Shown here piece by piece: positions 2,168 through 58,661 of a stretch of 64,000 bases of DNA. Source of the DNA: a virus; the IMG/VR virus record IMGVR_UViG_3300035661_000023, positions 33,346 to 97,345 of that record. One strand, 5' to 3'. The notes beneath the pieces were generated by a model. The model had not been told where the DNA came from. It was given only the letters and a program-made list of their open reading frames with translations, and ran no database searches. The position numbers were made by a program, and so were the translations under genes. The first letter of the stretch is position 1, and every line of letters starts with the position of its first letter.

Positions 2168-3130
2168 TCAAACCTTCCAAACAAATTTAGACTCATCCCA
2201 ATCTCTAGCATATTCCCTCTACATCCCCTAAAAGAAATCATTGAAAGTGTAATCGTTGATTGCTTTATAGAACCACTCAGAGATAGGATCATATGTTACT
2301 TCAAACGGTGGTTGGAAACCGAGCTGTTTGAAGCACTCATTGATTCTTGATTTAACAAAATTCTTCAATTGTTTGGCAGTAATTCCATCCTGTGTGCCCT
2401 TCTCAAACACCATATCAATGATTTCATCTTCATGTTCGAAGATCTTTAGGGCTGCGGTGGTAATTTTACATTTCAATGATTCCCATTGTTCTGCATTCAG
2501 ACCAGCATTTTTTGCCTTGACCTTAAACGCGTAAGCAGAAGCAAGTGCATGCAGATTTTCATCGCGCAGAGAGAAATTGATACCGCGAACTACATTCAAT
2601 AGTTTATTCTTGCCCTGCTACTGGAAGTGTTTCAAGTAAGCAAATGCGGAATAAAGAATAACACCTTCTACCATAGAGAATGTAGCAAGAGCAGCGAGTT
2701 CATCTTCTTCTGAAATGATCTGTGCGATATGCTCCATACGTTCTTTTAGCACTGGGTTATCAAGATACTACATGTAAAAGTTTTCGTCATCCAAATGCAG
2801 AAGTTGATTGATCTTATTATAAAAGGGTCCATGTACTGCAAGTTCGAACATAGCAAATGTGGAAGCCATCCGGTGCCATTCTACACCATCAAACATTCCC
2901 TTGAATCTGCCTCCCCACCATTCGTCCCCTGCATGTGTCTCATACAGAGAGAACAATTTCAGTGTAGTGATTACCCCATGTTTTTCTGCCGGTGTGAAAT
3001 TCACCAACACATCTTGAATATCTTTTTCTACATTTACTTCTTCTGGTAACCAAAATATCTTTAGTTGTTTATCCGTAAACTCTTGTGGTACTGGATCTTT
3101 ATCAATCGGGATTAAGTGTTTTGCTAGCAT
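2168..3130 (-). CDS. nrdB: Class I ribonucleotide reductase beta subunit, 320 aa with 4 in-frame TAG (2768, 2618, 2228, 2219)
   Basis: FWLPEE, ELAVH, VEGVILYS, RDENLH and NDFF motifs all in one frame; only TAG interrupts; ends TGA. Confidence 0.93.
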
Positions 3131-3136
3131 TTTTCC

Positions 3137-3532
3137 TCAGTGTGAGTAAGTTGGTTTTTGTTTGTCATAATAATGTGTGTCAATATCTTCAGTCATCAAT
3201 TTGATAATGTCATTCCAATTAACATCTTCAAGTTCATTCATATCTTCATCATATACAGTCCCATAGGCACAAATATCTGATATAAAGAAACCAGTGTTAG
3301 TTAACTTGCCAATAAATTCTGCGACATCATACAACTCATTACAAACAGCACCTGTTCTGATAGTAAAACCCGCTTCTACTTTCTTTTCTGTGTGATTCCT
3401 AATCATGAACCTGATTATAGGGACATAAAATGTATCAGTATCCTATACTACTTTAATACAATCAATTGCTAGTAGATCGAATTGATCTTCTATAACAGGA
3501 AAACAAGAAAAGAGTTTTACATAATCAATCAT
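3137..3532 (-). CDS. Hypothetical protein (1 TAG at 3443)
   Basis: ATG at 3532 abuts the primase stop; frame continuous through TAG into ORF 3137-3406. Confidence 0.6.
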
Positions 3533-3534
3533 TT

Positions 3535-4554
3535 TTAGAATTTCTTTCTATGATTGATTTCAAGTTTAGCTTTAAGCCCTGTGGTCACATTCTGCATTAT
3601 AATTTCCATCAATTTCTGTTTAGACAAATTACCTTTGACAACACAATCATTTATATCTTTCCACGGAATAGATTCTGGCATCAGAGATACACGGAACCCA
3701 TCATCAACAATCCTCTCCAATGATTTATATACCTGCTTATTTCTTTTCCAATCAGAATCTGGTATTACTATAATCTTTTCTCTATTTTGTTCTAGGAATG
3801 GAAGACTGAAGTCACCTCCATTTACTGCTATGCAATTATCCAGAAACAATGAATCGATCTGACCTTCGACTGCCAGAATATCTTTGTTCATGTCTAATTT
3901 CCATAGCCCGTAAATTTTTGGTCTTGCTTTATCAACCATTACCGTGACATATTTTGGTTGTTCTTTTCCAAATGAACGACCCGAATAGCAAATAACAGAT
4001 CCATCTGAATCATAAAAGGGGAATACTAATCTTGGATGGGGACTATTTAACTTTTCAAAAACCTCATCATACTTCGCTGCAAATTTGTAGAAGTTCTTGG
4101 CGATGCTGATATCCTACCAGAATTCTCTTGGGATTCTTCGGGACGTCACATATTGTATCACAGAACTGGATTCTTGTAGCTTTGTTAGCGGAATCAAATC
4201 TTTATCCAGATCTATGTGCTTTGGTTCAGGTTTTTTGACAATAGAAGTGAACAGTGGCTTCGGTGTAGTAAACCCACCCTTAGAATCTTTGAACTTCTCC
4301 ATCCTATACTCTTGAAATAGATTTGGATCTTCTTGTTTCAAGAAATTGCCGAATGAACTTGAAGCCGAACAGTGGTAGCAATGAAACATCATACCATCAT
4401 CCATCTGGTAGAAGTTTCCTCTAGCTTGAACTCTGCTTTTACTGAAGTCTTCGCATGAATGAGAAAAAGCATAAACATTCCCCCTCTTCTGTTTGAAGTT
4501 TGGGAGTCTGCCGCCTAGTAGTTTGGAGTATTTTAGGTCAATGTAGTAGCTCAT
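3535..4554 (-). CDS. gp61: T4 gp61-like DNA primase, 339 aa (1 TAG at 4114)
   Basis: Zn-binding region (FHCYHC), YVTSRRIP, PRLVFPF, SGRSF, VEGQIDSLF and WKDIND; length close to T4 gp61 only with read-through. Confidence 0.93.
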
Positions 4555-4619
4555 AATGAGTACTATATCATAAAAACAAGGGAAGAACGCGGGAAACTTA
4601 AAAAACTGTGTTTTCTATC

Positions 4620-4866: not shown

Positions 4867-5004
4867 TTAGACTAAGGTCTTTAACTTTGGTGGATCTTGC
4901 ATCAGATCAGGTGGTGGCAATGGAAACTTTTGTTTTTCTGCAACTGGTACTGTGCTGCACCCAGCAAATAATAGAACACACAACGATGCTAAAATGAATT
5001 TCAT
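4867..5004 (-). CDS. Outer-membrane spanin (Rz1-like lipoprotein), 45 aa
   Basis: MKFILASLCVLLFAGC lipobox followed by Pro-rich FPLPPPDLMQDPPKL; overlaps the end of the i-spanin; too short for the ORF track. Confidence 0.8.
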   Translation of the reverse strand: MKFILASLCVLLFAGCSTVPVAEKQKFPLPPPDLMQDPPKLKTLV

Positions 5005-5567
5005 TTGTTTTCGTTCCATAATTTTTCTTGTCTGCGGACCCACTCTTGAAGAGACTTAAGTTGCTGAGCAGTTCTTTGGCAAGTTGAGTAATTCTCTTTC
5101 ACGACCGAACTCACATCACTAAGTTTTATATCAGATGGTGTGGTGTCTGTTTCTTCAGGTGAGATGAGAACTTGATTTACAACTGAATCATGTAATCTCA
5201 CAAACCCAGTGTTGATAGTACAAGCAGAATCATCCTTCACAGTAACAAATTTAGTCACAACTTGTTGTTGCACTCTATCTATATATCTAATCTCTGGATA
5301 AAATTCTGTAAGAATCTGGGTGTTGATATAAGCAGATTGCGCTTGAAGAGAAGCAATTTCTAATCTAGCAGCAGACATTTTGATTTCCCAATCAAGTCTT
5401 TCCTATTCTTTTCCCTTAAAGAATAAACCAAGACTAATTAGCAAAACACCAATGAACTGACCAATAATCTTGTATTGACCAATTGGCAGAATATATGAAG
5501 CTAGAAATAATACTGATCCAATAATCAATATTGAAAAACTATACTAGATAATAAAAGATTCAATCAT
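5001..5567 (-). CDS. Inner-membrane spanin (Rz-like), 188 aa (2 TAG)
   Basis: N-terminal TM helices recovered only by TAG read-through; C-terminal ENYSTC...QLKSLQEWVR; adjacent o-spanin. Confidence 0.8.
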
Positions 5568-6322: not shown

Positions 6323-6688
6323 TTATTCCCAGAGATTTGTTTTGTTATCACCATTATATCTTTTGGCAAGATTGAGTGAAATTAATTGTTCATTTATCGT
6401 AGTTGCATTGCCATCTAGATTAATATCCGCCAGCCATCTTCCATACTTATCTGTCTTTGTCTACTGTATCACAACACTCTTATTCAAAATTTGATCAATA
6501 AGAAATTGTTTTGCTTGTTTTGCTATTGCTTGAATTGCTTCATTTTTAGAATTAATTTCCGGAGTGTCAATCCCATTTAATCTAAATCTGATTTTTGTTG
6601 ATACATTGAATCCAAGATCTACTACTGCATCAACAGTATCACCATCAACTATATTAGTAATAGTTGCATTATAGACATATCTAATCAT
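6323..6688 (-). CDS. Thermonuclease (SNase-like), 121 aa (1 TAG at 6461)
   Basis: VDGDTVD, RLNGIDTPE and, after the TAG, DKYGRWLA. Confidence 0.88.
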
Positions 6689-7059
6689 AACTTCCTCAAC
6701 TTTTCTATGATTACTTGATCTAGACTTATATCACTGATTGGATATTTCCCCGAAATAAGATAATCTTCTGGGAGTCTGTTCAAGAAAATTAAATATGGAA
6801 TTAAAGTTCCCCATTGATGATCTTCAATTTTATAGAAGAGCATATCTAGTGTAGCATTACCAAAAATGTTTAAACAAATAACTAGATGGTTCAGAACTAA
6901 TCTCTCATTGCTAGCCCCCGAACCATCTAGATACTTATTGAATATCTTTTTAATATGAGAAAATCTATCAATGTCCTATTTGAACTCATCCACAGATATG
7001 CATTGTGGATTATCATATGAGTGCAAAGCAAGTTGTAGAAAGATTTTCTCATTCATCAT
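6685..7059 (-). CDS. Conserved T4-like hypothetical protein (1 TAG at 6976)
   Basis: YDNPQC..DEF, NERLVLNHL and MLFYKI motifs typical of a small core gene near the primase; absent from the ORF track. Confidence 0.7.
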
Positions 7060-9682: not shown

Positions 9683-10747
9683 TTATCGTGATAGACGTTC
9701 TTTTTCCACTTGTCTGACAAGTGGAACTAATTTCATAGCCATTCTATCAATGACATTCTTTCTGCGTTTGATAATACGCTCAATGCGTTCCTTTTCACCC
9801 GAGGAAAGTTGGTCCAATGGCTTCTTTGCTAATTTCTTTTCCATGGCTTTTACAGCCAGTTTTCTTGCTCTATGATTCAGCGTAGCACCACTTGAATGCT
9901 TCTTCAGGGCAATCTTCAATTTAGCTTGAAGTTTATTCTTGTTTTTTGCCATTCGGATTCTTGCTTTAAGTCTCTCCGAACGGGATAATACTTCATTCAG
10001 TTCTGATTCATCGATAGACTCTTCCAAATGATTCCCTTTTTCATCATAGATTCCAAACTCTTCATCATCATATGTGGAAAGAATATCTTCATGATCTAAA
10101 TCTGCAATCATGGCATCCAACTCTTGATCCGAAAATTCATCATCATCTACTTGTTTCTTTTCCTCTGTGACGATAATCTTTACTTTAGGAGAAGCGACAA
10201 CATCAATGCCGGCAGATTCTGCCAGTTTTAACATCTCATCTACCAGTGCTGCGTTCTCTGCCGACATTTCACCTGCACTAGCAATTGCATTCTCAATAAC
10301 TTGTGTGGGTGTTTCACCGGCAACAGACTTATATCCGAGTGACTGTGCAATAATAGATGCCGCTTGTGTTTTTCGTGTCAGATCTTCATTTACTTGCTTC
10401 TTGACTGTAATCTTGGCAACTTTCACCTATTCCTTAACAGGAAGAACAGGTTTCTGTTTTGTTGCGATCTCAATACAAGGTTCAAATGTGATAGATTCTT
10501 GCAGAGGTGTGTAGATCTTATTATCAATCACTACTTCTAGCCTAACTGGATAATTGCCAGCAGATAGAATATTCTTTAGTACTGGAATTTCTACTTCGGT
10601 AGATTCGTTAACATTTCTACATGGTAGCATAATGCTGAAATCTTTGCCCTCTATAATGAATCTTGCCATGGGCTGAGATTCTGCTCCAGTTACTGAAACA
10701 CCAAATTCTAACTTGGTACTTTCGTCTAATTTTAGTTGTGTGATCAT
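9683..10747 (-). CDS. Putative head/prohead-core-associated protein, 354 aa (1 TAG at 10427)
   Basis: Two abutting in-frame ORFs joined by one TAG; acidic region then LNEVLSRSER and a basic C-terminus. Confidence 0.65.
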
Positions 10748-10773: not shown

Positions 10774-11085
10774 TTATTTATTATTTGTGTATGCATTAAT
10801 AGCAGTTTCTGCAATTTTTGCCCCTGACCAAATTCCCAGATAAGACAAGAACATCCAAGTATCAATTGTATTGTTCTTTAGTACAATGTACATGACGACC
10901 CAAGTGCTTACTGCTAATGATACGAATATTGCCATACGAAATGCAGATGGTTTTCCTGAATCATCTCTGAGCATATCTTCGAATTCGAAATTGTTGTCTG
11001 GGTCCTTTTGTACGCGATAGAGTACCCAGCCACCCATCATGAAAATGAGTAACATCACAATTGACGCTATATCAAAGCTATCCAT
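10774..11085 (-). CDS. Small three-TM membrane protein (holin-like candidate)
   Basis: Three hydrophobic segments; DDSGKPSAFR motif. Confidence 0.5.
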   Translation of the reverse strand: MDSFDIASIVMLLIFMMGGWVLYRVQKDPDNNFEFEDMLRDDSGKPSAFRMAIFVSLAVSTWVVMYIVLKNNTIDTWMFLSYLGIWSGAKIAETAINAYTNNK

Positions 11086-11482
11086 TAGTCTATCTAGATG
11101 TTGTTGCAATTCTATTCACCGTTATAGTTATCTGTTCTTGTTCGTAAATCTGAACTCCATTCACAGATACCATAACATTATTAGTCGAAAAGTTCTTGAT
11201 TCCTTTTAACGTGGCAATAACTCTAGCTTGTTTTTCATCAACAATCTGAGTATCCTCGTACCATTTTCCATTGTATTTAATTCTTACGGTTACTCGGAAA
11301 TGTGTTGGCTTCCTATGTAATGGGGCAGGAACGAAACCACCCCAGCCTCCACCACCACTGGAATGAGGGATGACAGGCTCAATGATTACTTCTGTTTCGT
11401 ATGTACCTAGATTTGCTATAGATCTGGTAGTGACCTAACCAGGGAATAAACCTTGTACCGCTAGATTCTTATGCTCGAACAT
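11072..11482 (-). CDS. Hypothetical structural protein (TAG at codon 16; end ambiguous, TAG 11090 or TGA 11072)
   Basis: Fills the gap between flanking genes only with read-through. Confidence 0.55.
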
Positions 11483-11486
11483 AGAA

Positions 11487-12224
11487 TTAGACTCGAGTTA
11501 TGATGGTTTCTGTGGATGTTGTGACGATGTTCTGGCTTATAGATCCAGCGACACGTGCATTCTCTGTGACGATCAGTGGCTTAGTAATGTCCAAACCGAG
11601 AAGTTCATACATTTCCAGAATCATAGTTGCTTGTGTTGGAGTCAGTCCAGCAGTCTGGTTTTCCAGAGTTAGTACATGAGCAAGTTCAGGAGCAAGTTCA
11701 GTGCGAACTGCAGCTGCTATAGTATTAGCCTAAGGTATCTGGTTTGATTTAGCTAGGACTGTAGATGATTCAATTTCTGCTAGAGTAGCTCCGCCACCAG
11801 CTCCAGTCTACGTCAATGTTCTATCTGTATAATTCCAGATATCTGCCGCTGTTGGTCCAGAACTACCTGATGTTGATACCGTGTTCACCAATGCGGAAAC
11901 TGTAGCAGGAAACTGTGCTACCATTCCTGGAGTATAATAGGCTGTTTCATAGTCGTCAGAGTACAACACACCAGTAACTCTGACCTTAGTAAAATCCAAA
12001 GATAGCTTCCAACCATTGATCAAGAAGTACACATCACCTGTATACACACCTGGGCCAATTTGATCCAAACCTGTCACCCTGATGGCAGGAAGATATTTGA
12101 GGTTATCGGCTGTGGCTATCCAGTCTACCCAGGCAGAATATACATCTACTCGAATATCAAGAGATGTTACTGTGCTCAGTACACTGATTACCTTTGTCAC
12201 ACCATCAAATGTTACTTTTGCCAT
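11487..12224 (-). CDS. Tail/baseplate-associated structural protein, 245 aa (2 TAG)
   Basis: Continuous frame to TAA at 11487; PTAADIW and P*ANTIAAAVR repeats. Confidence 0.7.
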
Positions 12225-12289: not shown

Positions 12290-13723
12290 TTAGGATGCGT
12301 AGACGCGATCTTGTTCTGCAGTCAATGACAGAGAAATGGCTTTACTTCTAGTCAGAGTACCAGTTGCAACCACATACTTGCCAGAACCTGGGCGGACACC
12401 AATCAAGGTAATCGCTCTGTCTGTAGCCGGAGTTGCTCCACCCTGTACGTTACCATCATAGTCATACGTGAAGGCAATAGATGAAGCGGAAATAGTTCCT
12501 GTGATTGGTGTGCCCTAGGCATCGTTAACTGTGATCGCACCAGATTCACCATAGTCGTTACCAGCACCCGGAGGAGATGTGAACATCATGCGATATGAAG
12601 AACCAGCTCCTATCAATGGCGCGTTGAATGTAATTGTACCAACTGCGGTGTATGGGTTAGTTCTCAGCGTATTTGAATCATCATAGAATTCAATACGGTT
12701 AGAGTCAGCTGACTGGATATTATCGATGTAAACTGATTGTGATGTTACCAGAGTATCACCAACGAATGTCAACAGAGAAGAAGCAGTCTTACCAGTTACA
12801 GAACCTGCGGTACCGGCAGTGTTGATGTTACTGTTCTGACGCAACAAGTATTGAATCTTGGTGTAGATCTGTTCAAGTGTTGCATTGTTACCGTTAATGA
12901 TAATCTTGAAGTTTCTAGAAGTACCACCGATAACTCTTGTCTGGTTTTCCGTGTAGTAGGAAACATTAATACCAGAGTATGGTGCTCCTGACATTGCAGC
13001 ATCAAGAATAGGTGAACCAGAAGAGTAGGTCTTCAAGTCATCTTCGTTTGACAGCAGAACATTAACGATGTTAGCACCAGTAGATGTCTTACCGGTATCA
13101 GCCAGCACTGAGTCTTTGTACTTCTTGTTAGATTCTCTAACGAATGCCTTGAAGTAAGTTCTCTTGTCGAATGTTGTCGTTGTTGCATCAGCTGTAATAT
13201 CACCATAAATCTGGATACCTTCGTCACATTGGTCAGTGAATGTAAAGTTAGTAGGAGCATCAATAGAAGCTCGTTGATAGTACAACTGAGAACCAGCGGA
13301 TACGGAACCCAGACCCACAATACCCACATACTGTCTAGCCAAAGCACCACCAGAGATTAGGTTACCAGAACCATCATACACACCAGCTGTGAATTCAGAC
13401 CAACCACCATCACGCAGCATTTGACGGGTTGCATCATTAGCTGGTTTCCAGCCGTTGTACCGAGCACCATCAGTACCAAATTGGAACTGACCAGAAAGTC
13501 GGTCAATCGCATACATCGGAAATGGAGAATCTTGGTATGCAAGCGTATTCCACAAGTCAACAAACTTAGAATATAAAGCAGCTAGTTCTACTCCATCTTT
13601 GGCAATTAAGCCGTTTGTAGTAGAACCGTCTGCAGACGCAATAAGTGTAAATGTTTTAGCAACTTCGTCAATTGTAAGATTTGTTCCTACTATAAGTTGC
13701 GTTCTGCTATTCAGCTTTGCCAT
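12290..13723 (-). CDS. Tail/baseplate-associated structural protein, 477 aa (1 TAG at 12515)
   Basis: VNDA*GTPITG read-through to TAA; beta-rich; late promoter upstream. Confidence 0.7.
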
Positions 13724-13822: not shown

Positions 13823-16800
13823 TTACTCATAAGCCAGATCAACCAGTTGAGCAACAGGAATTGATGCATCGGTGGTACCTAGCGCATAATTACGAATTGT
13901 GTATGGTTTGAATCCAGGTTTGTACACAACAATGTCTACATTCTGTTGAACTGAATACTCATAGTTCCAATATGTCACCGAGTTGTTTTCTATAGAAGCA
14001 ATAATGGTTGTTGTACCTGCCATCAGGACCACGATATCAGATCCAGTCTTAAGACCAGTCAGTGTCAGATTGTTCACAGATGCTGGATAGTAATTTCCCA
14101 CTACATTGTCTAGTTCTGTAAACAGGCGGATTGCCATTAACTTACTGGTCGGTTGTGGTGCAAATACACCAATTGTGTTAGTCGCAGTGATTGTCCCGTG
14201 AATACCAACAAGACTCACCTATCCAGATGCAGTAGACAAACTCGCCGCTGTGTTGCCATAAGATGCTGTGGTTACAGTAAATGTTGTGGCGTTTACAATA
14301 GCATGCACGAAGTAGGTAGTTCCCGTGCTCAGACCACCAATCGCGGTTTCTACTCTGAACCCCATACTTGAGTGTAGGTTAGCAGTGCTGTCACATGTTA
14401 CTGCTGCATACGTACCGGTTATTACTGTAGATGTAACACCTTGAGGAAAGTTAACTACCCATGTGGAGCCGGAGCCGGAGCCGGAGATATTTGCTACAAT
14501 ATATGTACCAGAAGTAACCCCGGTGCCTGTCACCAGCATACCAGGTACTATTGTGCCAGCAGCTAATGTTCCGACTGTTAATGTAGTTCCAGCAATTGTG
14601 GATCCATTCAGTGTCGCTGTTGTATTAGCAGCAGTTGCTGAAATTGTAGCTACTAAAGTACTAGAATAAATTGTGTCACCGGTAGCCCAAGACCCAGTAA
14701 CGCTGGAGCACGCGATGCTACCAGTTGTTGATGTAGTTATAGTTTCGTCGGCTTCAATTACAGCCGTACCAGTTGCAGAGGCGGCTGATAGTGTGTTTCT
14801 AATTGTTTCACCGATGACAAACTGTGCAGTCTGCCCTGTGTATTTCATGACATATCTTGCACTAACCCGAAACTTGATTCTGAAACCAACTGATGGATCA
14901 AAAGCAGTTTCGTATGCTAGATTGCAGATCCCATTATTGCCGTTTAGCAATTTCCAAGAACCAGAATAACCAGCACCTCTGTCTAAATCATACTCAAGTT
15001 TTGCACCCAGAGATGTTACTGGGCTCAGTCCAATATCAACGCCATAGATGTGTGGCATGCGTCTAGAGAATCCAGTTACACCCTTGATAACATGAGGCCA
15101 CTCGAATGTGACAACATCTGAGTTGGTAGTAAAGAACAAACCACCCGAGTTATCAAAATAAGCATTACCAGATACAAACGCATAAGGTTTCAACGACTTA
15201 GTCGATGGAGACATTCTAACATCCAAACATCCCTTGTTTGCAGCTCCCCATGTCATTTCGTGGAACATGTTATCATAAACCGCAGCAAGTGATGCTGGGT
15301 TAACTGGGAAACTATCCTGAGATGGGTTAGTGGTCATATTCCATGATACAGCACTGTTTACTGGGATAGAATCGCAGCCAGGGGACCCTTTGTAGATTGT
15401 ATCTAAAGAAGAAGCACCCCACGGACTAATTCCGCTTAGGGTTGATGTTACGTTCTGAAACTTGATCCCAGATGATGCGTTGTTAATAATAGAATCAAAA
15501 TACACAGTAGACACATAATTTCTTGGATTGACCATCTTGATATTATGTAAGTACACATTATAAGCAGCTGTGGAATATCCCAACAAGTTACCGACGGAAC
15601 CATTGAACGAGATTGTGGAATTCTTTATCGTGATACCACTAGCTCCGTTCTATGGATACAATAGAACGTTTCTATCAGCCAGATAGTTGTTTGCCGGTTG
15701 ATAATTATCGATCGTGTGATTTGAAGATGAAGCATAAGCAAACGCTACATCTGTTCCACCAGATTCTGTACTGTAAACTTGGTTCTGATCGGTGATTGTA
15801 AAATTAGGTCCTGAATTATCGACATGCAAGTGAGCCCAATACTGACCAGTAGGTGCTGCTTGGATGTTAGTAACAATACCTGCTGGAGCATCATATAGGA
15901 AATAACCAGAAACACCATCAGAGAAGTTGAATAATTGTTGCGGCAAGAATGCAGTAATAGCCGTCGCATTAGGTGGTGTCGGCACTGGTATAGATGATCC
16001 AACTGTGACCATAGCTCGTACAGCTTCTACCATACTACCCATCAGTGGCAATCTGATGACTGCGTTAGTTGCGTTTGATGTTGTTGTAAATGTTACAGAA
16101 TATCTCTTCCATTGGTTAGTCAAAACCAAGCTATTAGTTGTAGTTCCAAACAACAGATCACAAGTAATATAGTCACGAAGATCTGGGTGTCTAGCTCTTA
16201 GATAGACCTAGAATGTATACGGGACTCCGATTCCTGTGTTGATAGTTTGTGTCAGAGTTCCGTTTGCAGCAGCAGCATATAAAGATGCCCCTAGTGCAGT
16301 TCCTAGTGCAGCGTTATTGCCAATAAGGTTGTCAAATGGTGTATACACAGCAGCGTTTGTTGCTGTGATGTTCGATGCCACCCATGTTGTTGCTAGAGTA
16401 TCTGATTGCAGTGCCTGGTTTTGGATGACAACAGGAGCAGTAGCAATGCCAGCCATCTCAGGCAGTTCTTGCCCAACAACAAAGCGTAGTGTTTGATTCA
16501 CAAATGTATTTGTGTTTGCAACGGATACTGTCATGGAAGTTGCAGAGTCTACAGTCTACACTACACTATCTAAGCCAACGTTAGAACCGAAGATATACAT
16601 TCCGGGAGCAGGACTGAAGCCGATATAAGATCTGTTATTACCTCTAGATGTCACATTAGCAGTTAGGTTAGCAGACAGCACGATTGTATCAAAATCTGGC
16701 ACATCTATCACAGTAGTTCCTACTGGAATGCCGGGTCCGGTTACAATTACTCCTGGTATGATACCGTTGGCAAAGAAGTTGAATACCGTAGATGATAGTA

Positions 16801-19800
16801 CGTTTGTACCAACTTTTCCATCAATTTCAAATGATGCTTGCCAGTAGTACCAGCTACCTTGTGTGGTGATTGTGTTAGCCGCAGCAGTGCCAGAGCAGTT
16901 TGCGATCGATGCAGCTCCACCACCGGACAATTTGCGCAGTCTGTAGTAGTACGTCGTTCCTTTAGTCACACCATGTGTGTCATTAAAGAACATCTGCCCA
17001 GCAGTTACTGATTGTGTAGCACCAATTAATGTTGTAGCATCTCTAGCAGTAAAACCTGGTGTAGTTGATCTGAACAACTGATATACACCTTTATAGAAAG
17101 ATGCAGTCATACCAGACGCAGTTTTAGTAGCAGGCTTGTTGATAGTAAACGTTGTGCCGTTTGTGATACCTGTTACAATTGCTCCGTTCACTGGGCTGCC
17201 AGCGGCACCACCGAATAAAGCCATAGCACCAGTTGCAACTTGGTTACCGTTACTTAATACCATGACAGTGCCGACTTGCAGACCAGCAGTTGATGTACAA
17301 GTCACTGTTGTGCTACCGTTTGTTGTAGAAACAGAAGACGCTGTGTTTAGTGCAGTACTAAATTCTGTCGATTGGTGATATACGGAAATTCTGTTATATA
17401 CTGGCATAACATCTGTATACAAAGTCCAGGTAGGAGTTGTTACAGAAATGTCAGAAGTATACGCAAACCTACCCGTTATCGCAGACACAACACCAACGGC
17501 ATTACCATTATTCGCAATGCCAATCCAAGATGTAACATCTGGTAGATATTTCAGAGCAGACCAAGTAACACCATCGGTTGAAGTGGCGAAGCACGCAGAT
17601 GCTTGAGCTGCAGTAAATGCTGTGTGTGATGTAGTATTCCACACAGAACCAGCCATGATCACAAACACAGAACCAGTGAATATGATCTTAGAATATGTCA
17701 TACCTGTGGGGAGAGCTGGTGCAGTGCTAGCTGTCCAGGATGTTCCGTCTGTGCTGTATGCGGTAGGCCCTGTTGTACTTGAACCCGAAATTGCAACGAA
17801 TTTTGAAGCACCGAATGCAATCTATTGCCATAGAGATGATGCTAGAGCACCACCAGCAGTCCAAGTTGCTCCATCTACGGAATATGCAGATGCAGTACTT
17901 GCCACAGACCCACCTGCAATTGCTATATATCTTCCTGCACCGTTTGAAGTTACATCAATCCAAGTGGCTGATGCTAATGTGGTTGCAGTAAAAACGAAGG
18001 ACCCGGTTGTTACACTACCTCTAGTGCCAGCCGTTGACACAGCAGATCCACCAGATACTGCTACCCATTTATTTGTTGCTTGGGTGTTATCAAATGCCAG
18101 TTTTTGCCACTGAGCAGCTGCTGGTGCAGTTGTTACTTGTGACCAATCTTTCCCATTAGTGGAAATTGCAATTAATGTAGAAGCCGCCCCACCACCACCG
18201 ATTGCCATAAAGTAGTTCTGTGTTGGGCACCAGATAATATCTCGCCAGTATGTAGAAGCTGTGGTTGATGCTATAGGTAATTGATATGCAGTCCAAGTTA
18301 CTCCATTATCATCAGAAACCATAGCTGTGTTAGCACCAACAGCTATAGCCCCGTCTAAAAATACCCATGATCCATTACCGTATGCCATACAAGGTGCCGT
18401 TGTTTGCTACCAAGCCGGAGTTACACCCACACGCTGTGGCATTTGCAAATACTTCGGGAAATTGCCATGCACACCACAAATTGGCATAGAATCTACATAA
18501 GACGTTACATCTTGCACATTTGTTGTTTTGTATGATCTAGACTTCAACCAGTATTTTGTGTCTTTTGCAATGTACTGTTCGTTCTTAACATCTGCCAGAA
18601 CACGCATACCAGATGCCCAGCTATACCCCTCATTGTTGATACCAGTTCTGTGTGTGATATTAGAAATCTTGGTGTTGTTGACAACATAGCACCCCATCAC
18701 ACCATTGACATTATACAGCTTGATGTTAGAATAGTTATGATTATTACCAGCACTATTTGGTGAAAATGCAGTGTTGTTTGGTCTAGTTTTTGGATATGAA
18801 CCAACCTGGATTCCTTTGAAGTTGTTGATCGTGACATTATTAGAATAACTAAGTCCAAAGAATCCTGCATATGCTGAGCCAATCGATGGGTTTGTCTACA
18901 AACCGTAGTTCATATGACCACCAAACGTCATCGTCACATTTTGTATATTTGCATTAGAAACATATGACCACAAAGCACTAGTCAACGAGTTACCAAAAGA
19001 GGCAGTATTGCCTAATAACATACGATGTTCGCGAACTACCCAGGGTCCATAATATGTGTACGCAGTTGTGCTAGTCGTTGTGTGTGCAGCAGTAGAAATC
19101 ACTAATGATGTCGCAGAAACTACTGAGGTAACAGTTGCCGCATGAATAGCTGCACCACCAGTAGTCAACAACATACCAGGAATAATAGCAGTTGATGACG
19201 GTATTGTGATTGTTGTTGAAGATGCAGTAGAAGCACCAGTAGCACCAAGAGCTACTGGGCTAGTTACCATCATCCCGAATGATGGTAACTAGAATGCTAC
19301 GTTATCCATCGATAGCTGGTAGCACTCTGAAATGAATGGAACACACTGCCCACCTGAGTTAGTGATTGATACAGAACTAGCTTGTGAGAAGTTAGAATAT
19401 GATTCACCAAACAGAGTCTTGTCAAAGCTAAATTTCCCCCCACCAGCAGAAGTTCTTAAGTGGAACGGAGCATTACTAGATGTAAACACCGCATTCATGA
19501 AGTTAGCCGGAGAATAATCCGTTAACATTATGTTTGGGACTCTAATCTTAGCACCGGTCGGCGGGAGAGTCCCATTCGTGCCATCTCCGAATCTCAGTGT
19601 AGTTGTATTCTGTGCATAGATAGGCAGAATTGCTGCCATTGGTATATTAGCAAAACCAGTAGTACCAGAAGATGATGCAAAAGATATTACACCATTAATC
19701 GTGAAACTAGTTGAAGATAGTACTTCTTGTACCACAGCACCACCAGATATACTTCTGCTGTACACCCAAGTACCGGGTACTAACCCAGCGGTCGATGTGC

Positions 19801-23440: not shown

Positions 23441-23457
23441 TTAGTGCTCCATCTATA

Positions 23458-24583: not shown

Positions 24584-24670
24584 CTTTATAGAACTCAATG
24601 TTAGTGATAAGTGTATTTAATCCTTATCAATCTTCGTGGGCACAGTTTGGAACAGATTTGTTACCCCTCG

Positions 24671-28071: not shown

Positions 28072-28072
28072 G

Positions 28073-32596: not shown

Positions 32597-32597
32597 A

Positions 32598-47085: not shown

Positions 47086-47868
47086 TCAACGTAGTGACCA
47101 ACCCACAGATGCTACCATAGACTTAGACCATTCTGGAATCGTCAGTGGTATCTTAGCACCAAAATACATTCTGCGGTATTTCCCAAAGAATGAAGTTTCA
47201 TATGCAAAAATAGAAACAACAGGCTTCCCATCCAATCCGTTGACAGATCTAATCACCCATGTAGTACGTGCCGGGTTCATTTTCAGATTCCAGCCATCAA
47301 AATCTTCTGGAGCACTGACCCAGAATTGATAGTTTGCATCAGGACCGGTGCCTCTTACAACATCAATTCCCATTCTTTCTGTCAGAGCAGATGCTCTATT
47401 TCTCAGGCCTAACCAAACCCATCTAGCATAGAATGAACGTGGGTGATGCCCCTTCGCCCAATAGCACAGAGAAATTGCATGCTCATCATTCTTGTCTAGA
47501 GAGATTGGAATCAAATCATTATTGTCCCCTCTTTGATCTCCATTGATGGAAGCATCATTGCCCCAAATAGAATCGAAGAATGCCAACTTTTCTGCTTCCC
47601 ACTTTGTGAAGATCAGAATGAAAGGTACCACAATCGGTGACATCAGATCAATAGGGATTGTGATAATAGCATTGAAGGAAGCCGCCCAGAATTGTTTTCG
47701 GGCGGCTTCCTTGATGTAATCCGGTACTGGAGTCTAATTTAGAATTTCCAACACACGGAACGGAAGATGTGCATATACCAACAAACACAGGAATGCAACA
47801 ATAAGAACTACCACTGCAGCACCTGCAACTTGTAGTTCTAGAGGCAGAGAAGATAGAAAATAGAACAT
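47086..47868 (-). CDS. Membrane-anchored phage protein, 260 aa (1 TAG at 47734)
   Basis: WGND.SINGD and RWVWLGLRNRAS; ATG 47868 with AAGGAG SD and TAAATA upstream. Confidence 0.7.
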
Positions 47869-48189
47869 CGGGATTACTCCTTAAAGATCTATTTAACTAT
47901 CACATGTGTTCTATGTACATCTTATGAAGTTTCCACCCCAGCACAACAAGCACAACACCAAGAATGAACAACTAGAAACAAATCAACAATTCAGACATTG
48001 ATTCGATTCAGCTTTTTGGTGATGTGTTCCTAGATCATAGAATCAAACTCACCGGACTCGAATCTTTTTGCATACCACTGAAGTGCTACAAGAAGATTAC
48101 CAAGTTCTTGACATTCATACTTCTAGATATGTTCTGCCAGACTTTCCAGTTTGATTTTAGAAAATAAGGCAGTCTGCTGGATCATCTCT

Positions 48190-48468
48190 TCAGTCGGCAC
48201 TCTCATCGTCATATTCATCCTTGATATCGAATACCTCCGCATATGTATTCTCGAATTGCTCATTGTCTTGTTTCTCTGTATGAAAACGTTGAGCATGATA
48301 AGTCTTACACATCTTGCGCAGAATCTTTTTATCCAATTCGTTGTCCTCTGCAACCTTAGCGATTGCTTCCTTGATGTAGTCTCGCTCTCCTTCCATTCGA
48401 GTCATTGCGCCGGAAACTTCACCAACTAGATCTTTGATTGCTTTCTTTGCGGGTTCAGATAGACTCAT
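48190..48468 (-). CDS. dsbA: T4 DsbA-like dsDNA-binding protein
   Basis: EVSGAMTRMEGERDYIKE...KKILRKMCKTYH. Confidence 0.7.
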   Translation of the reverse strand: MSLSEPAKKAIKDLVGEVSGAMTRMEGERDYIKEAIAKVAEDNELDKKILRKMCKTYHAQRFHTEKQDNEQFENTYAEVFDIKDEYDDESAD

Positions 48469-48732: not shown

Positions 48733-49008
48733 TTAACCTCCAAAAATTTCCATAGATTTCACACTTTCTGGACGAATAGATCGCCAGCCACATACCTGCA
48801 TATCAAACACTTTTACTGCCGGTGTTTCGTCAGTAATCTCATTATACACCTCATTTGAACCCTTCGGATGATTCTCATTGGGGATTACTTCCAGATTACG
48901 AGTTGCAACCATCTGACGGATAGAACCATCAAGTTTTTCAAATTCAATTTTCATAATATTTTTACTCAGTGTAGTTGCAAGTTCGGTTGCAGTGATGTTG
49001 ATAGTCAT
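48733..49008 (-). CDS. SH3/Sm-like beta-barrel (WYL_2-like) protein
   Basis: FEKLDGSIRQMVAT...VFD...GWRS. Confidence 0.75.
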   Translation of the reverse strand: MTINITATELATTLSKNIMKIEFEKLDGSIRQMVATRNLEVIPNENHPKGSNEVYNEITDETPAVKVFDMQVCGWRSIRPESVKSMEIFGG

Positions 49009-49442
49009 TCTTCTTGATACCTTCCTACTAAAATTCCGTGTTGTGACATATATTCTATGCCAGATGGGTCTTTATACTCTTCCATGTAAACAACTCTTTT
49101 GATACCAGATTGAATCATCAATGCAGCACAGTGTTTACATGGACTAAGTGTAACGTAAACAGTAGATCCAAAGATTGAAACACCTTCCTTAGCTGCTTTG
49201 AGTATGCAATTCAATTCTGCATGTATTGTTTCAATCTTCGTGATGAGGTCAAAATCCTGAGTTTGCTAATTCCAGACTTTGTTTTCACATTCGTTCTAAG
49301 TTCCTGACTAAGTCCCATTATAGCCGGGCAGGATCACACCACTGTTTGTGACAATTACTGCCCCAACCTTCTTGCGAATTGCTTTGGACTTTTCTGCATA
49401 CAATATTGCTGTGTGCATGTGGACTGAATCTAGATTTGCCAT
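49005..49442 (-). CDS. cd: dCMP deaminase, 145 aa (3 TAG)
   Basis: RKKVGAVIV, GYNGT, HAELN, YVTLSPCKHC and IQSGIKRV. Confidence 0.9.
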
Positions 49443-51003: not shown

Positions 51004-51296
51004 TTAAATTTTGATTAGTTGGTTAGCTAGGGTTTTAGTTGAAATATCAGAATTCCAGTATTGGAGAATAGTATCTTGATTTGCTGCAATCCAATTCAAT
51101 ACCATATCAAGATCTTTGATCTTCGATTTCATATTTCCGTATACTTTAAAAGACGGAATTGCTATGGAAAAGTATCATCTGCTGTCATCCTTCCGAATTG
51201 ATTAGATACTTTCACTCTACAGCCATGGCTACTCAATTTCGGAGAAAGAAAAACTACTGGATTAAGCCCGGTATCTTCTTTCGTGAAATTAGCCAT
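51004..51296 (-). pseudogene. Conserved small phage protein with a 1-nt frameshift near 51168
   Basis: MANFTKEDTGL...HGCRVKV in one frame and SIAIP...WIAANQDTILQYWN in the -1 frame. Confidence 0.55.
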
Positions 51297-54110: not shown

Positions 54111-55067
54111 TCACCACTTAGCCTCATTTTCGAACAGTTGACGGAACTGAATCCAACCTTGCAACTTACCAGACCAGAGAGAACAATCCCTTCGCATGTG
54201 AGTAATACCTTGTTCCCATGTGTCAACTGTAGTAGGGATGTTGATGTAATCTTCTGTGGATGTTGCTTGCATTGGGGTTGCTTGATGACAAATAGGAGAA
54301 GCATGCGCAGGCTTGTTCTCCGATTCCAAATTCAACATGTCAAACACCTTCTCTGCTTGTTCAATAGAGTCATTCAACTTACGATATGACACCTGCGCGC
54401 AGCAAGAAGCAGAAATCTTCTTTGCAATGTCCAGTGGCACTTCTATATCGCCTGAGAAGTAGCTTCCGTCGATAAAATCAACGTATGGTAAATGCCACTC
54501 TCCTGGCATCAATTTATCAGGGACAGATTGTTCTCGTGCTTCAAACATGCAACGTGCCAATTCTTGGAACTCAGGTTGTGCATCTGGGTGATTGCGAAGC
54601 CAGAAGAAATTTTCCCACTCTGTACCAGACATGACGGTTTTCATGAACTGAAATGGCTCTGTCATGCGATTTGCGATTTGCTTATGAGCATTGATACCTT
54701 CTTTTGATCCCATAACGCGAGCAAATGACACTGCCTCCTTACTAGCAGCAACCCAGATACTTTTTGCCATCGATTCTTTAAAGTTGTCAAGTAACTTTTT
54801 TGACACCATGCCGGGATTATTTTCACCCCATTCAATCGGCATTGCCGGTGATTCTTCGATCATCTTAAGCATTGATTCGACTGGAATTGCCCGACTCGAT
54901 GCTGCATTCTTTTCTAGCATGCAGTGTGTCATTACCTCAGAATGGAAAAATCTTGGATATTCTAGTTCGTATGTGATGAATCGATTACCTCGATTGTTAA
55001 CACTGTCCTTGATAATAGTGGCTTTAATACCACCCCTTCCTTGAACTTTAATCATCATTTTCCTCAT
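54111..55067 (-). CDS. thyX: Flavin-dependent thymidylate synthase (ThyX/Thy1)
   Basis: YPRFFHSEVMTH, NAASSRAIP, HKQIANR, W.NFF.LR.H.DAQPE and HASP. Confidence 0.88.
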   Translation of the reverse strand: MRKMMIKVQGRGGIKATIIKDSVNNRGNRFITYELEYPRFFHSEVMTHCMLEKNAASSRAIPVESMLKMIEESPAMPIEWGENNPGMVSKKLLDNFKESMAKSIWVAASKEAVSFARVMGSKEGINAHKQIANRMTEPFQFMKTVMSGTEWENFFWLRNHPDAQPEFQELARCMFEAREQSVPDKLMPGEWHLPYVDFIDGSYFSGDIEVPLDIAKKISASCCAQVSYRKLNDSIEQAEKVFDMLNLESENKPAHASPICHQATPMQATSTEDYINIPTTVDTWEQGITHMRRDCSLWSGKLQGWIQFRQLFENEAKW

Positions 55068-55798
55068 GTGTAATTAATTCTGTTGGCTTCAAAAGTAGAG
55101 TAGTCTATTCTATAGAAGAATCCGATATTCGCTTTGATAATCCTATCTTCGGTCACTACTGTTCTCACTGCACCACCACAATAAACTAGTAGAATAGTAG
55201 ACATGGGATCTGTGGGCTAGTATATCTTGTCAAATTCTGAAAATACAATAAGACTCTCTTGTTGAGAAATATACCCAAGAGAATTTGCATATTTTCTACC
55301 AAGTTCCTATGATAGATATCTTTTCATACTCACAGGAACTACACTCTCATTAACAAACAATCTCCTGTCAGTGTTTATCTTATAAGAACCACCAGTACTA
55401 TTATACACATCGAAGTTTCTATTTGTTAGATAAGAACTATTTGTCACAACAAGATCGGAAACATAGAATGTATTTTTAAATTCCGTCTCCTACATCAAGT
55501 TCGGTTCTGGGAGTTGGTACACAAATTTATTATCTGCGAACTCCTACCAGACATCTACAATATTACTATCACCGGTGCTATATTTTAGCCGTAATTGCCA
55601 TGGCACAGAATTAGCACTAGAAAAAGGTGATGTGTACATGTCACAAGTCAAGTACTCTATTGATTTCGTACCGTTGCTGTAATAGGAAGAAATCTAGTAA
55701 CTACCTTTTTTCTACTCTAGAACCTGATTGATGTACTGTAGTTTTTTCTACTCATATCCATCTTCTGATGAATTTACTGAAATTGAAATTAAGCTCAT
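55064..55798 (-). CDS. Hypothetical protein, 244 aa (7 TAG)
   Basis: 735-nt frame with no TAA/TGA; ATGA-coupled at both ends; invisible to the ORF track. Confidence 0.7.
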
Positions 55799-55976
55799 GA
55801 TACGAATGTGTATTTGAATGAAGTTCTTTGGGAACACATAGTCATATCGTGTTCATGGATTTCTGTGATCTAGCATTGTTCTCCAGATTCTACTTTCTGC
55901 CGAAAGATATTGTCCAGATAATCTTTGCTTTCTGTGAAATCTACATCATGTGAATTTATTTCATATGTAATCATTC

Positions 55977-56246
55977 TTACGCTCCATTAGCAAAAACATT
56001 TTGACTTCCCTCAATCTTTGTATCTGGGGGAAAGTCATTGTCTTTATCACCGATTCTCGTTATAGTTTTTTTGTTAACAAAGACATTAGGAGATCCTTGT
56101 ACTGTAGAATCTGGCGGAGAATCCGAGTCTTTATCTCCCAATCTGCACGCACCTCTTTTGTTCACAAATACATTCTGACTCTATTCTTTCATATAATCTG
56201 GTGGAGAATCCGAGTCTTTATCTCCCAATCTTACTACACCTGGCAT
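55977..56246 (-). CDS. PAAR-repeat baseplate spike tip (T4 gp5.4-like), 89 aa (1 TAG)
   Basis: Three repeats of R(L/I)GDKD.D.PPD...S.NVF; the first repeat is recovered only by read-through. Confidence 0.85.
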
Positions 56247-56264: not shown

Positions 56265-56714
56265 TCATGCCATATTTAAGTAAAGTTCACTGATATCATA
56301 TTCGAACCTATCCCGCATGCGCTTCATAGATTCATCCGGGACATTATGTACCGATTTGAAATTTCCATTCATAGTCATTACCACCAAAGCAGAGTCTGTG
56401 ATCTTGGCGATTTCAAAGTATGGGCGCAGTTCTTTCTTTGTGGTGAAGGTATTAGAAACCCATGTGTCAAATCCACCTTGGAGACTCTTGTGTGTCTGCT
56501 CTTGACACCATATATGTGCTAAATGTAGTCGACCAGAATCAAACTTATACTCTCCAGTCAATGGGTCGACAAAGTACATATCGGCTTCATAATGATTCAC
56601 CAGAGCATGCAACTGATACTTGACGAAAGAAGTTTTGCCAGATCCCGGCAACCCGCGAACCAAATACAAAATAGACTGACGATTATTCATTTTTCTTTGC
56701 CTCATGTGCTGCAA
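56265..56714 (-). CDS. P-loop kinase (AAA_33/polynucleotide kinase-like)
   Basis: RGLPGSGKT, EADMYF, VSNTFT and HNVP. Confidence 0.8.
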   Translation of the reverse strand: MQHMRQRKMNNRQSILYLVRGLPGSGKTSFVKYQLHALVNHYEADMYFVDPLTGEYKFDSGRLHLAHIWCQEQTHKSLQGGFDTWVSNTFTTKKELRPYFEIAKITDSALVVMTMNGNFKSVHNVPDESMKRMRDRFEYDISELYLNMA

Positions 56715-56797
56715 TCACAGCTCTAGCGAACTTCACATAATCCCAGAATTTGAATGGTGGATTCATCAAAGAGTTTTTGATCTCCTTGATTTCTTGA

Positions 56798-57841
56798 TCA
56801 GTTAGCATTTACGACATTGATCCAAAATTTCTTAGCTGTGGTAGAAATGATACCATTCACATCTTTAGGCTCAATCTTAGATACTACCATTGTATCAGCT
56901 TCTTCACGGAAAATATCAGACATGACCCACTTGATGAAATGACCGGTTGAAGTCATTTCCAGAGGGTACCCAAGTTCTTTCATCTTTTCAACCCCTTGCT
57001 TCAACCTATTCTCGGTAAGTACTTTATCAACGAACTCTTGATTAGAAGCAATCTTTTCTGGGTCAAGAGTAGCAGTAGTCTTGACCTTAGAGACGGAGTG
57101 CTTCTCACCTTTCACCTTGGCAATATTGCTACGAATGTCAAAACCAATTTCTTGGGTTTGAATAGGTGTGATCACAACACCCTCACCAACAAGACTTCCC
57201 ACTGGCGCATCTGGTTTGAAGAATCTAGCAACAGGGCAGTCATCTTCTACAGCAGCACACAATTCAACAAAAGCATTTTGACTGAGTTCTGGTCGCTCAA
57301 AATCTACAGTCACATAATGAGTAGGGAAGTCATACTTTGTGTAAATGTTGTGCTCTGCATACTTCTTGTCACCAAATACACGTGTAAATGTCTCACATGG
57401 CTGCCAATCAATCGACTCTGCATCAGACGATACACGAATGCCAAATACCATAAAAGATTTAGGCAAGCCATTTACACCAACACCAGATTGGATATTACCA
57501 CCAAACCACTCACCATAGATCTGCACGTTACCTTCTTTATGTCCGGTGATGGCTACGATATCATTCATGATCGAGTTGATCAGGTCACGGTTGGAATAAC
57601 TCCAGGAAGCAAAACCTGCATTATCAGATTCGATTGTGCAAATGCGTTCGCGAGATTGAAAGATGATGTCTTCGGCGGTGCCAGATACTGGGCGGACCCA
57701 CCCACCATTCGATCCGTGTACCTTAGTCGTCACTTCAAAGACAACTTTAGGGTATGGCAGGTTGTGGTAATCTGCAGAAGAACGAACATTCTTGACGATC
57801 TGGCGATACTGATCAATAGATGGAAATTTGATATGTGTCAT
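56798..57841 (-). CDS. RNA ligase 2 family protein
   Basis: KVHGSN, FQSR, YGEWFG, GEGVV and KVKG. Confidence 0.85.
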   Translation of the reverse strand: MTHIKFPSIDQYRQIVKNVRSSADYHNLPYPKVVFEVTTKVHGSNGGWVRPVSGTAEDIIFQSRERICTIESDNAGFASWSYSNRDLINSIMNDIVAITGHKEGNVQIYGEWFGGNIQSGVGVNGLPKSFMVFGIRVSSDAESIDWQPCETFTRVFGDKKYAEHNIYTKYDFPTHYVTVDFERPELSQNAFVELCAAVEDDCPVARFFKPDAPVGSLVGEGVVITPIQTQEIGFDIRSNIAKVKGEKHSVSKVKTTATLDPEKIASNQEFVDKVLTENRLKQGVEKMKELGYPLEMTSTGHFIKWVMSDIFREEADTMVVSKIEPKDVNGIISTTAKKFWINVVNAN

Positions 57842-57922
57842 GATTGTATTATATCACTGTATTCAATAAAAGATAATTTTGTTGAAAATTTTAAGTTGCG
57901 CACATCTACCCAACTCGTGATG

Positions 57923-58528
57923 TTAGTCTTTTGTTCCGTCATGATGACCATGTCTTCGAACAGGTCGGCGACTCATTTCAGAGCAGATGTCATCCATATC
58001 ATGTGGCATCATGAAATTTCCATCCAAGCCAATATCGCACTGCCGAACATCAGGTCCTTGAGGATATCGATGATCATGATGACTATGACTATGTCCGGAC
58101 AACGCGATTGCGCCGTGATGTGCTCTGTTCCAAGTCAAAAAAGGATAATGACTGACGACAATCTTGTGTTTCTTTTCCTGAAACAGATGGTCAAACTCCA
58201 TATAGTCTCCATCCCACACAACTCCGATCAGACCACGAGATTGCTGATATACAGAACTGTTTCGCAGATTAGTGTCATGATTCCCCCAGACGAGTTTCTT
58301 TATACCATTCAGCCGCTTCAGAAATTCTACACCGACTTCTGGTTGTGCGAAACATATGTCACCAGCGATGATAAGAGTATCTTTTTCTTTGACTACAGAA
58401 TTGATGTTCGTCACAACAGCTTCATTCATCTCATCCACATCTTTGAAGTGACCACGAGACCATGGACTGTACTTCAGGATGTTAGAGTGTGAAAAATGTA
58501 TATCCGATGTGATGTATACTTTACTCAT
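57923..58528 (-). CDS. Calcineurin-like metallophosphoesterase
   Basis: SDIHFSH, GD, GNHD, SHYP and GHSH. Confidence 0.88.
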   Translation of the reverse strand: MSKVYITSDIHFSHSNILKYSPWSRGHFKDVDEMNEAVVTNINSVVKEKDTLIIAGDICFAQPEVGVEFLKRLNGIKKLVWGNHDTNLRNSSVYQQSRGLIGVVWDGDYMEFDHLFQEKKHKIVVSHYPFLTWNRAHHGAIALSGHSHSHHDHRYPQGPDVRQCDIGLDGNFMMPHDMDDICSEMSRRPVRRHGHHDGTKD

Positions 58529-58661
58529 TTTCTTGTTCTGCCTATTCCATCATATACAAGAACATGCGTACTTGGTACTAGAATGTCTCTGGGAATATTT
58601 CAGGGTTTACCAAGCGAGAGCCGTAGTGTTCCACCAATTTGTTGTAAATTTCTTCAGTCAT
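58521..58661 (-). CDS. Small hypothetical protein (2 TAG)
   Basis: Fills the gap; YG..LVNPE.FP..F*YQV pattern. Confidence 0.5.

Follow-up and report, generated by a model that had tools for sequence, protein, structure and literature searches.

Genes and in-frame TAG codons in the window

The window analysed here is a 64-kb stretch of viral DNA, bases 33,346-97,345 and hence the right part of the linear 97,345-bp virus record IMGVR_UViG_3300035661_000023 (hereafter G000; completeness 59% by CheckV). Its subject is the amber codon TAG, which stands within the frame of many genes and is very probably read as serine. The minus strand carries almost all genes. Open reading frames (ORFs) were called with a simple greedy caller that treats TAG as sense, and whose output includes at least one wrong antisense choice (57317-58492). 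The TAG-bearing ORFs, and the block that follows the last of them, are as follows.

2168..3130, minus: NrdB, ribonucleotide reductase small chain, 320 aa, 4 TAG (PF00268, E=1e-38)
3137..3532, minus: ORF, 131 aa, 1 TAG
3535..4554, minus: DnaG-type primase, 339 aa, 1 TAG (PF08275)
5001..5567, minus: ORF, 188 aa, 2 TAG
6323..7059, minus: two ORFs, 121 and 124 aa, 1 TAG each
9683..10747, minus: ORF, 354 aa, 1 TAG
11072..12224, minus: two ORFs, 136 and 245 aa, 3 and 2 TAG
12290..13723, minus: ORF, 477 aa, 1 TAG
13823..21304, minus: giant fibre-like protein with internal repeats, 2,493 aa, 9 TAG
21304..21843, minus: ORF, 179 aa, 1 TAG
22758..23793, minus: three small ORFs, 130, 97 and 111 aa, 1, 1 and 2 TAG
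23795..25300, minus: two ORFs, 262 and 209 aa, 4 and 3 TAG (column tallies)
26162..27412, minus: DUF6267 protein, 416 aa, 4 TAG (PF19782, E=1e-95; column tallies)
27409..30190, minus: three ORFs, 220, 351 and 322 aa, 3, 2 and 4 TAG
32598..33542, minus: TET-associated glycosyltransferase (TAGT), 314 aa, 1 TAG (PF20691, E=5e-34)
34977..35567, minus: ClpP-like protease, 196 aa, 1 TAG (PF00574)
36088..36558, minus: cell-wall hydrolase (Hydrolase_2), 156 aa, 2 TAG (PF07486)
38416..39018, minus: GH19-like lysozyme/chitinase, 200 aa, 2 TAG (PF00182)
39140..39934, minus: PhoH, 264 aa, 3 TAG at residues 35, 142 and 166 (PF02562)
47086..48296, minus: two ORFs, 260 and 101 aa, 1 and 2 TAG
49005..49442, minus: dCMP/cytidine deaminase, 145 aa, 3 TAG (PF00383)
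51129..51296, minus: small ORF, 55 aa, 1 TAG
55064..56246, minus: three ORFs, 244, 59 and 89 aa, 7, 1 and 1 TAG, the last TAG-bearing genes before the TAG-free block
56265..64000, minus: TAG-free block of presumed early genes, with a Pnk-like kinase and two RNA ligases

An initial annotation of the window had counted about 80 in-frame TAGs in about 35 genes. The present calls give 76, within 33 of the 83 minus-strand ORFs, and the protein lengths rebuilt earlier for NrdB (320 aa), primase (339 aa), PhoH (264 aa) and the GH19-like enzyme (200 aa) are recovered unchanged. The accompanying statement that minus-strand genes stop at TAA or TGA holds for all 83 of these ORFs (TGA 48, TAA 35). Over the whole of G000 the greedy call yields 127 ORFs with 193 in-frame TAGs. 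Coding density, which the initial annotation had named as a check, came out clearly for sense: coverage is 0.794 under code 11 and reaches 0.928 once TAG is treated as sense, and the gene count drops from 178 to 127. Reading TGA or TAA as sense instead gives 0.866 and 0.854, respectively, both below the TAG value.

The single 2,493-codon ORF contains nine TAGs and zero TAA or TGA, and the NrdB, PhoH, DUF6267, gp6 and gp5 homologues are likewise full length when TAG is read as sense. TAG positions are spread evenly along the ORFs of G000 (decile counts 16-24, with no C-terminal excess), so that no hidden class of TAG terminators is present. TAG makes up 7.7% of all Ser-plus-TAG codons in the contig and, at 193 occurrences, is more frequent than TCG; the latter is still used 157 times, as had been remarked before. 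In the middle and late genes, TAG is thus used as a sense codon throughout.

TAG sites compared with a sister contig

The 60.5-kb IMG/VR contig IMGVR_UViG_3300048672_000522 (G001) shares approximately 84% DNA identity with G000 and shows the same TAG usage. Across 11,526 aligned codons, 58 TAGs are common to both phages, and a further 87 sites have TAG in one phage only. At 47 of these 87 the partner is a serine codon, chiefly TCT (28) or TCA (11), each of which lies two base changes away from TAG. Glutamine is the second commonest partner (15/87, mostly CAG). When substitution rates are estimated empirically from this alignment, the log-likelihood is -180 for Ser and -248 for Gln, with poorer values for all other residues. 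Changed Gln codons turn into Ser in 4.8% of cases; were TAG to encode Gln, 47 or more serine partners out of 87 would have a probability of 1.5e-38. TAG is also conserved between the two phages to the same degree as ordinary Ser codons (0.56 and 0.54, respectively). By these alignment-based measures, TAG evolves like a serine codon.

TAG columns in conserved proteins

Alignment of PhoH with 120 standard-code homologues (63-77% identity) places Ser at 98/120, 37/120 (where it is the top residue) and 117/120 in the columns of TAG residues 35, 142 and 166. The last of these is the serine of the RGIS motif, where Gln is found once in 120, in line with the earlier reading of RGI-TAG-VDD. For NrdB, aligned with 62 IMG/VR homologues, Ser occupies three of the four TAG columns 40, 38 and 29 times. 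The motifs KHFQ-TAG-Q and NDFF-TAG-G had both been assigned Ser by eye, and the counts of 38/62 and 29/62, with Ser in all close relatives, bear this out; all close NrdB relatives have NDFFSG where G000 has NDFF-TAG-G. The motif of the GH19-like enzyme (NGDTS-TAG-GDGW) was not confirmed in the one relative aligned, which has Lys rather than the proposed Ser.

A wider tally took all TAG sites in conserved contexts, defined by at least 50% identity of the ten neighbouring positions to five standard-code relatives. Ser was found at 28/64 such sites, followed by Gly (8) and Thr (7), with Gln absent (0). This Ser share agrees with the rate at which true Ser is itself conserved in this setting (46%), and the log-likelihood is -137 for Ser versus -171 for Thr. 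Distant relatives alone (phage C48C1, 25-45% identity) gave a weak lead for Ser. A database-free check is offered by the giant fibre protein, in which the TAG at residue 162 (AAY-TAG-IDAGSTW) corresponds to Ser in 3/3 paralogous repeats of the same protein (AYSLDGGATW, AYSVDGATW and AYSTDGTSW), as the initial annotation had pointed out. Ser ranks first and Gln far behind in every tally, and the aligned columns show TAG at serine positions of conserved proteins.

A serine-type CUA tRNA on a sister contig

Two further contigs were found when the major capsid protein from the closest relative with a standard code was used to query IMG/VR: G007, an 11.5-kb contig from the same sample as G001, and G008 (IMGVR_UViG_3300035661_000043, 79,755 bp). 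G001 reaches 16.8 kb beyond the left end of G000 and carries the large terminase (TerL), sheath, tube, portal and prohead protease genes, with no tRNA and no intergenic CUA hairpin found on it. G008 shares 19 kb with this left extension (74-89% identity) and also overlaps the right end of G000 at 81% identity. It therefore spans the segment missing from G000, and the implied genome is approximately 174 kb. G008 is recoded alike: it has 134 in-frame TAGs, coverage rises from 0.69 to 0.855, and TAG is the only stop codon found in frame. The best fit is Ser (-130, versus -148 for Thr), and TAG exchanges with Ser codons at 23/43 sites.

G008 contains a cluster of 13 tRNAs, located approximately 21 kb past the right end of G000. 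One of these is a 90-nt tRNA(CUA) (57520-57609; 54 bits against the Rfam tRNA model) that groups with tRNA-Ser in an alignment of class-II tRNAs from related phages. Its D arm is one mismatch away from that of a phage tRNA-Ser(UGA) and its long variable arm is similar. The acceptor pairs are G1-C72, G2-C71 and A3-U70. At the discriminator position it has U73, a feature shared with another phage tRNA-Ser; A73 is found in all the Leu and Tyr tRNAs of the alignment. A CUA tRNA with a long variable arm had been proposed as a mark of a serine code, along with a seryl-tRNA synthetase (SerRS) and release factor 2 (RF2). The tRNA is absent from G000 itself and present, with a serine-type body, on G008; the protein partners did not materialise, with no match to the class-II synthetase core PF00587 or to the release-factor domain PF00472 in G000, G001, G007 or G008.

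ARAGORN labels any CUA tRNA as pyrrolysine, and this identity was rejected for the G008 tRNA(CUA) on account of its shape. The same cluster includes a 76-nt tRNA with an ARAGORN anticodon of UUA, i.e. of ochre type (G008:50036-50111; L633:2004-2079), adjoining tRNA-Lys(CUU). Pairing in the anticodon stem of this UUA tRNA looks poor on visual inspection, and TAA still terminates genes of the clade. The idea that TAA might be another sense codon, prompted by this tRNA, was rejected, as only TAG interrupts the aligned frames. A tmRNA-like gene, with the predicted tag ANADTFLMAA followed by a stop (ARAGORN), also lies in the cluster at approximately 53224-53613 (L632:2103-2492). Several tRNA-Leu genes in the clusters of G008 and G003 are 77-78 nt long and do not have the long variable arm expected of a bacterial tRNA-Leu.

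A pattern scan of IMG/VR for long-arm CUA tRNAs returned 30, none from the G000 clade and most with a Gln-like body plus an insert. Many gut-type phage CUA tRNAs (loci L418-L535) are 89-94 nt long and have a tRNA-Gln-like body with the insert at the variable arm; a few of the long-arm tRNAs carry A73 and are Tyr- or Leu-like, one of them on a 412-kb contig (L457). A metagenome contig scan with the portal protein of the clade recovered only standard-code relatives, at 69% identity or less.

TAG in a second recoded phage

Searches with NrdB also recovered G002 (IMGVR_UViG_3300047547_000041), a complete phage of 144.8 kb with terminal repeats, which serves as a control. It has 88 in-frame TAGs in 58 genes and an 85-nt tRNA(CUA) (L221:1280-1364, minus strand) that is almost a duplicate of the phage's tRNA-Leu(CAA): the two agree in acceptor stem, in both the D and the variable arm, and in A73. 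Leu fits best in the tally of TAG sites (log-likelihood -64, versus -73 for Met). The TAG columns are dominated by Leu (e.g. 55/66, 37/45 and 23/26), with a few falling on invariant Glu or Tyr. On these alignments, TAG probably means Leu in G002. Like the G000 clade, G002 is an environmental phage in which TAG is sense and a class-II CUA tRNA is encoded, and the two have NrdB and other genes in common. Unlike that clade, its tRNA and TAG columns are of Leu type, and it belongs to a different clade (NrdB 49% identical). Since the tally for G002 agrees with its tRNA, the Ser call made by the same route for G000 is strengthened.

Proposed decoding of UAG

We consider it very probable, judging from codon exchange, conserved columns and tRNA type, that UAG acts as a seventh serine codon in the G000 clade, with UAA and UGA still terminating translation. 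The decoder would be a class-II tRNA encoded by the phage, serine-type in its body and with CUA as its anticodon, as seen in G008 and expected for G000. SerRS identifies its tRNAs by acceptor stem and long variable arm and not by the anticodon, as illustrated by E. coli supD and phage T4 psu1+. Because SerRS is blind to the anticodon in this way, the host SerRS would be able to charge the phage tRNA(CUA), and host charging is what we propose. Given the lack of a synthetase or release-factor gene on the clade contigs, the suppressor presumably competes with the release factor 1 (RF1) of the host. Such competition would explain a bias in the base following TAG, which is A in 48% of cases compared with 32% after Ser codons (p=1e-4). 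Ambers followed by a purine are the best suppressed, and the A excess suggests live competition with host RF1.

TAG is not evenly distributed among gene classes. It accounts for 11% of Ser codons in the baseplate module, for 5-7% mid-window and for 1.4% in 56,265-64,000 (Fisher test for this block versus the rest of the contig, p=7e-4), and both TAGs of the latter block sit in doubtful plus-strand ORFs. The load is highest in baseplate and fibre genes (11% of Ser codons), with up to 12 TAGs in a baseplate gene. G008 shows 2.3% in its tRNA-cluster/early region and 9.8% in the structural genes. From gene content and position, the TAG-poor block is taken to hold early genes. Early genes that are nearly free of TAG would be translatable before the suppressor accumulates, and their low TAG content fits the published model of early genes that remain readable in the host code. 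The replication-type genes NrdB, PhoH and deaminase already need the suppressor in G000.

A number of observations weigh against serine as the meaning of TAG, or against the route proposed. ARAGORN reports no tRNA on the window or the whole of G000, with only two doubtful matches at relaxed settings, and Rfam finds nothing tRNA-like on G000 at either the gathering threshold or E<=5; a scan of G000 for CUA anticodon hairpins gave four matches, all within ORFs and none intergenic. The tRNA link for G000 is therefore through a sister contig of about 81-84% identity. Charging of the G008 tRNA(CUA) by SerRS is read from the shape of the tRNA, which has U73 instead of the G73 of E. coli tRNA-Ser. 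Among the conserved proteins, the TAG columns of G001 TerL are mixed, with one invariant Ser and others Trp, Glu or Asn. The fourth TAG of NrdB (residue 304, motif NDFFSGMG-) falls on Gly in 61/62 homologues and would, if read as Ser, represent a Gly-to-Ser change at a near-invariant site. Several other strongly conserved TAG columns hold Gly, Asn, Glu, Lys or Trp. Glu, Lys and Trp are to be expected there, as their codons are one-step neighbours of TAG and, with a suppressor in place, such mutations would be tolerated; this one-step relation does not hold for the codons of Asn and Gly. Finally, Ser accounts for 54% of changed TAG sites compared with 68% for ordinary Ser codons (p=0.006), and Gln for 17% compared with 2% expected. 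The simplest reading of the Gln excess is mutational: among the codons a single transition away from TAG, only CAG is benign, although a little Gln may also be inserted at TAG.

Alternative explanations

Ambiguous decoding is the alternative that survives best, although we regard it as unlikely. UAG would mostly yield Ser, with some RF1 termination or near-cognate Gln insertion, and TAG-rich genes would be deliberately under-translated. The lack of any recognised RF2 gene or RF1 antagonist is compatible with this, as are the A excess after TAG with its hint of real RF1 competition, the surplus of Gln among TAG partners and the variation of TAG density with gene class. However, the 2,493-codon gene with its nine TAGs and the baseplate genes with as many as 12 require efficient read-through, and the Gln surplus has the simpler mutational explanation given above.

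That the suppressor is host-derived, with the phage having none and either the host reading TAG as Ser or a co-infecting element supplying the tRNA, appears very improbable. The absence of tRNAs from both the 97-kb G000 and G001 would be accounted for in this way, but G000 is 59% complete and G008 has the tRNA in exactly the missing segment. Moreover, avoidance of TAG by early genes would be needless if the host itself read the codon as sense.

The usual phage assignment is glutamine (genetic code 15; bioRxiv 10.1101/2021.08.26.457843), known from recoded gut phages such as the crAss-like and Lak phages, and Gln is the second commonest partner of TAG in the G000/G001 comparison. We nevertheless give it almost no credence: the number of Ser partners is incompatible with it (P=1.5e-38), Gln is found at 0/64 sites in conserved contexts and at 1/120 in the PhoH column that has Ser at 117/120, and the CUA tRNA of the clade has a long-arm serine body rather than a Gln body. 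Equally negligible is the possibility that the TAGs are untranslated, arising from a sequencing or assembly artefact (for example miscalled modified TCG, the encoded TET-associated glycosyltransferase implying that the DNA may be modified) or from decaying pseudogenes, since the same code is seen in four contigs that were assembled separately and carry at least three different IMG/VR sample numbers, 58 TAGs are common to G000 and G001, TAG swaps mainly with TCT and TCA rather than with the well-used TCG, frames are interrupted by TAG but never by TAA or TGA, and the genes affected include essential conserved ones with full-length ORFs.

Lineage and relation to known recoded phages

PHROG and Pfam matches in G000 reveal a T4-type baseplate and tail-fibre module, with a gp6-like wedge protein (E=6e-143), a gp5-like hub-lysozyme, wedge subunits and a tail tube; portal, sheath, TerL and major capsid protein are supplied by the sister contigs. 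G000 is syntenic with G003. Among isolates, those closest to it are Pelagibacter phage HTVC008M and two members of the Kyanoviridae, phage C48C1 and the Methylophilales Melnitz phages; C48C1 aligns at 25-45% amino-acid identity. From these matches, the G000 clade is T4-like, and its assignment to the Kyanoviridae is a loose one.

The reading of TAG as serine, supported here by the tallies and by the serine-type CUA tRNA of G008, had been put forward in the initial annotation with a reservation about novelty. That caution was justified: according to a 2015 review (PMC4695839), Ivanova et al. 2014 reported reassignment of UAG to Ser and Gln in phages that encode a Gln-tRNA(CUA) or Ser-tRNA(CUA) together with RF2. 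As the review describes them, those phages resemble the G000 clade in being uncultured, in reading UAG as Ser and in having a Ser-tRNA(CUA), here on G008. The review has them encoding RF2, whereas none was found in the contigs of the G000 clade; phage-encoded RF2 is thus probably an accessory rather than a defining feature of the TAG=Ser code. The G000 clade is T4-like, with its baseplate module and gp5/gp6 homologues, a comparison that on the other side draws on the description in PMC4695839. A full-text search found no description of TAG=Ser in a T4-like or a marine or freshwater phage, the work of Ivanova et al. 2014 being known to us through the review. The serine code of phages is therefore known but obscure, and what is new is its presence in a T4-like clade of at least four contigs without RF2.

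Borges et al., surveying human and animal gut phages, list only TAG-to-Gln and TGA-to-Trp reassignments among phages that differ from the code of their host (bioRxiv 10.1101/2021.08.26.457843). The code-15 phages (crAss-like, Lak, Agate, Garnet and Topaz) are similar to the G000 clade in that middle and late genes are recoded and early genes remain compatible with the standard code. They are similar, too, in the use of a phage-encoded suppressor tRNA with a host synthetase, although in the G000 clade the tRNA is known from G008 and its charging is deduced; the two differ in the amino acid, Gln versus Ser.

Serine amber suppressors used in the laboratory, namely supD of E. coli and psu1+ of phage T4 (a mutant T4 tRNA-Ser), have a CUA anticodon and are still charged by SerRS. 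These are single mutations that rescue nonsense mutants, whereas in the G000 clade the suppressor would be fixed, with approximately 190 TAGs spread through the contig. To our knowledge, no NCBI translation table has TAG=Ser, and gene callers and annotators for recoded phages offer TAG=Gln (code 15) only. Annotation of the G000 clade under code 15 places the wrong residue at approximately 8% of serine positions, including the PhoH RGIS motif. The clade documents a second amino acid for phage amber recoding in the T4-like lineage, which is rich in genetics and structural models, and it names a concrete natural candidate, tRNA-Ser(CUA), that is open to an amber-reporter assay.

Together with TAG=Leu in G002, the serine code suggests that the amino acid gained in phage stop-codon capture follows those synthetases that ignore the anticodon. 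By a slight margin of preference, we favour the view that amber reassignment arose several times in environmental T4-like and neighbouring phages, with different amino acids, each set by a synthetase that is blind to the anticodon and can be borrowed. The routes envisaged, held with the same slender preference, are SerRS via tRNA-Ser(CUA) in the G000 clade and leucyl-tRNA synthetase via a duplicated tRNA-Leu(CUA) in G002. If amber reassignment has indeed been repeated, entire lineages are being mistranslated by blanket annotation of TAG as Gln, and in TAG=Leu there would be a phage code of which we found no report in the literature searched.

Other features of the phages

In G001 the large terminase is spread over two ORFs that overlap (474 and 330 aa; L065:5938-8248, minus strand) and together hold 15 TAGs; an insertion, an intein or a frameshift could account for the split. 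At 30256-33542 of the window, the gene for the TET-associated glycosyltransferase (PF20691) has two ORFs free of TAG upstream of it, and in C48C1 genes for a nucleotide-sugar epimerase and a UDP-glucose dehydrogenase are annotated elsewhere in the genome. This sugar and glycosyltransferase gene context suggests glycosylated, hypermodified DNA. The TAG-free block encodes, on the minus strand, a Pnk-like AAA_33 kinase (56265-56705) and RNA ligases of Rnl2 type (56798-57853) and T4 Rnl1 type (59844-60722), a predicted kinase and ligase combination that constitutes a T4-style tRNA repair set.

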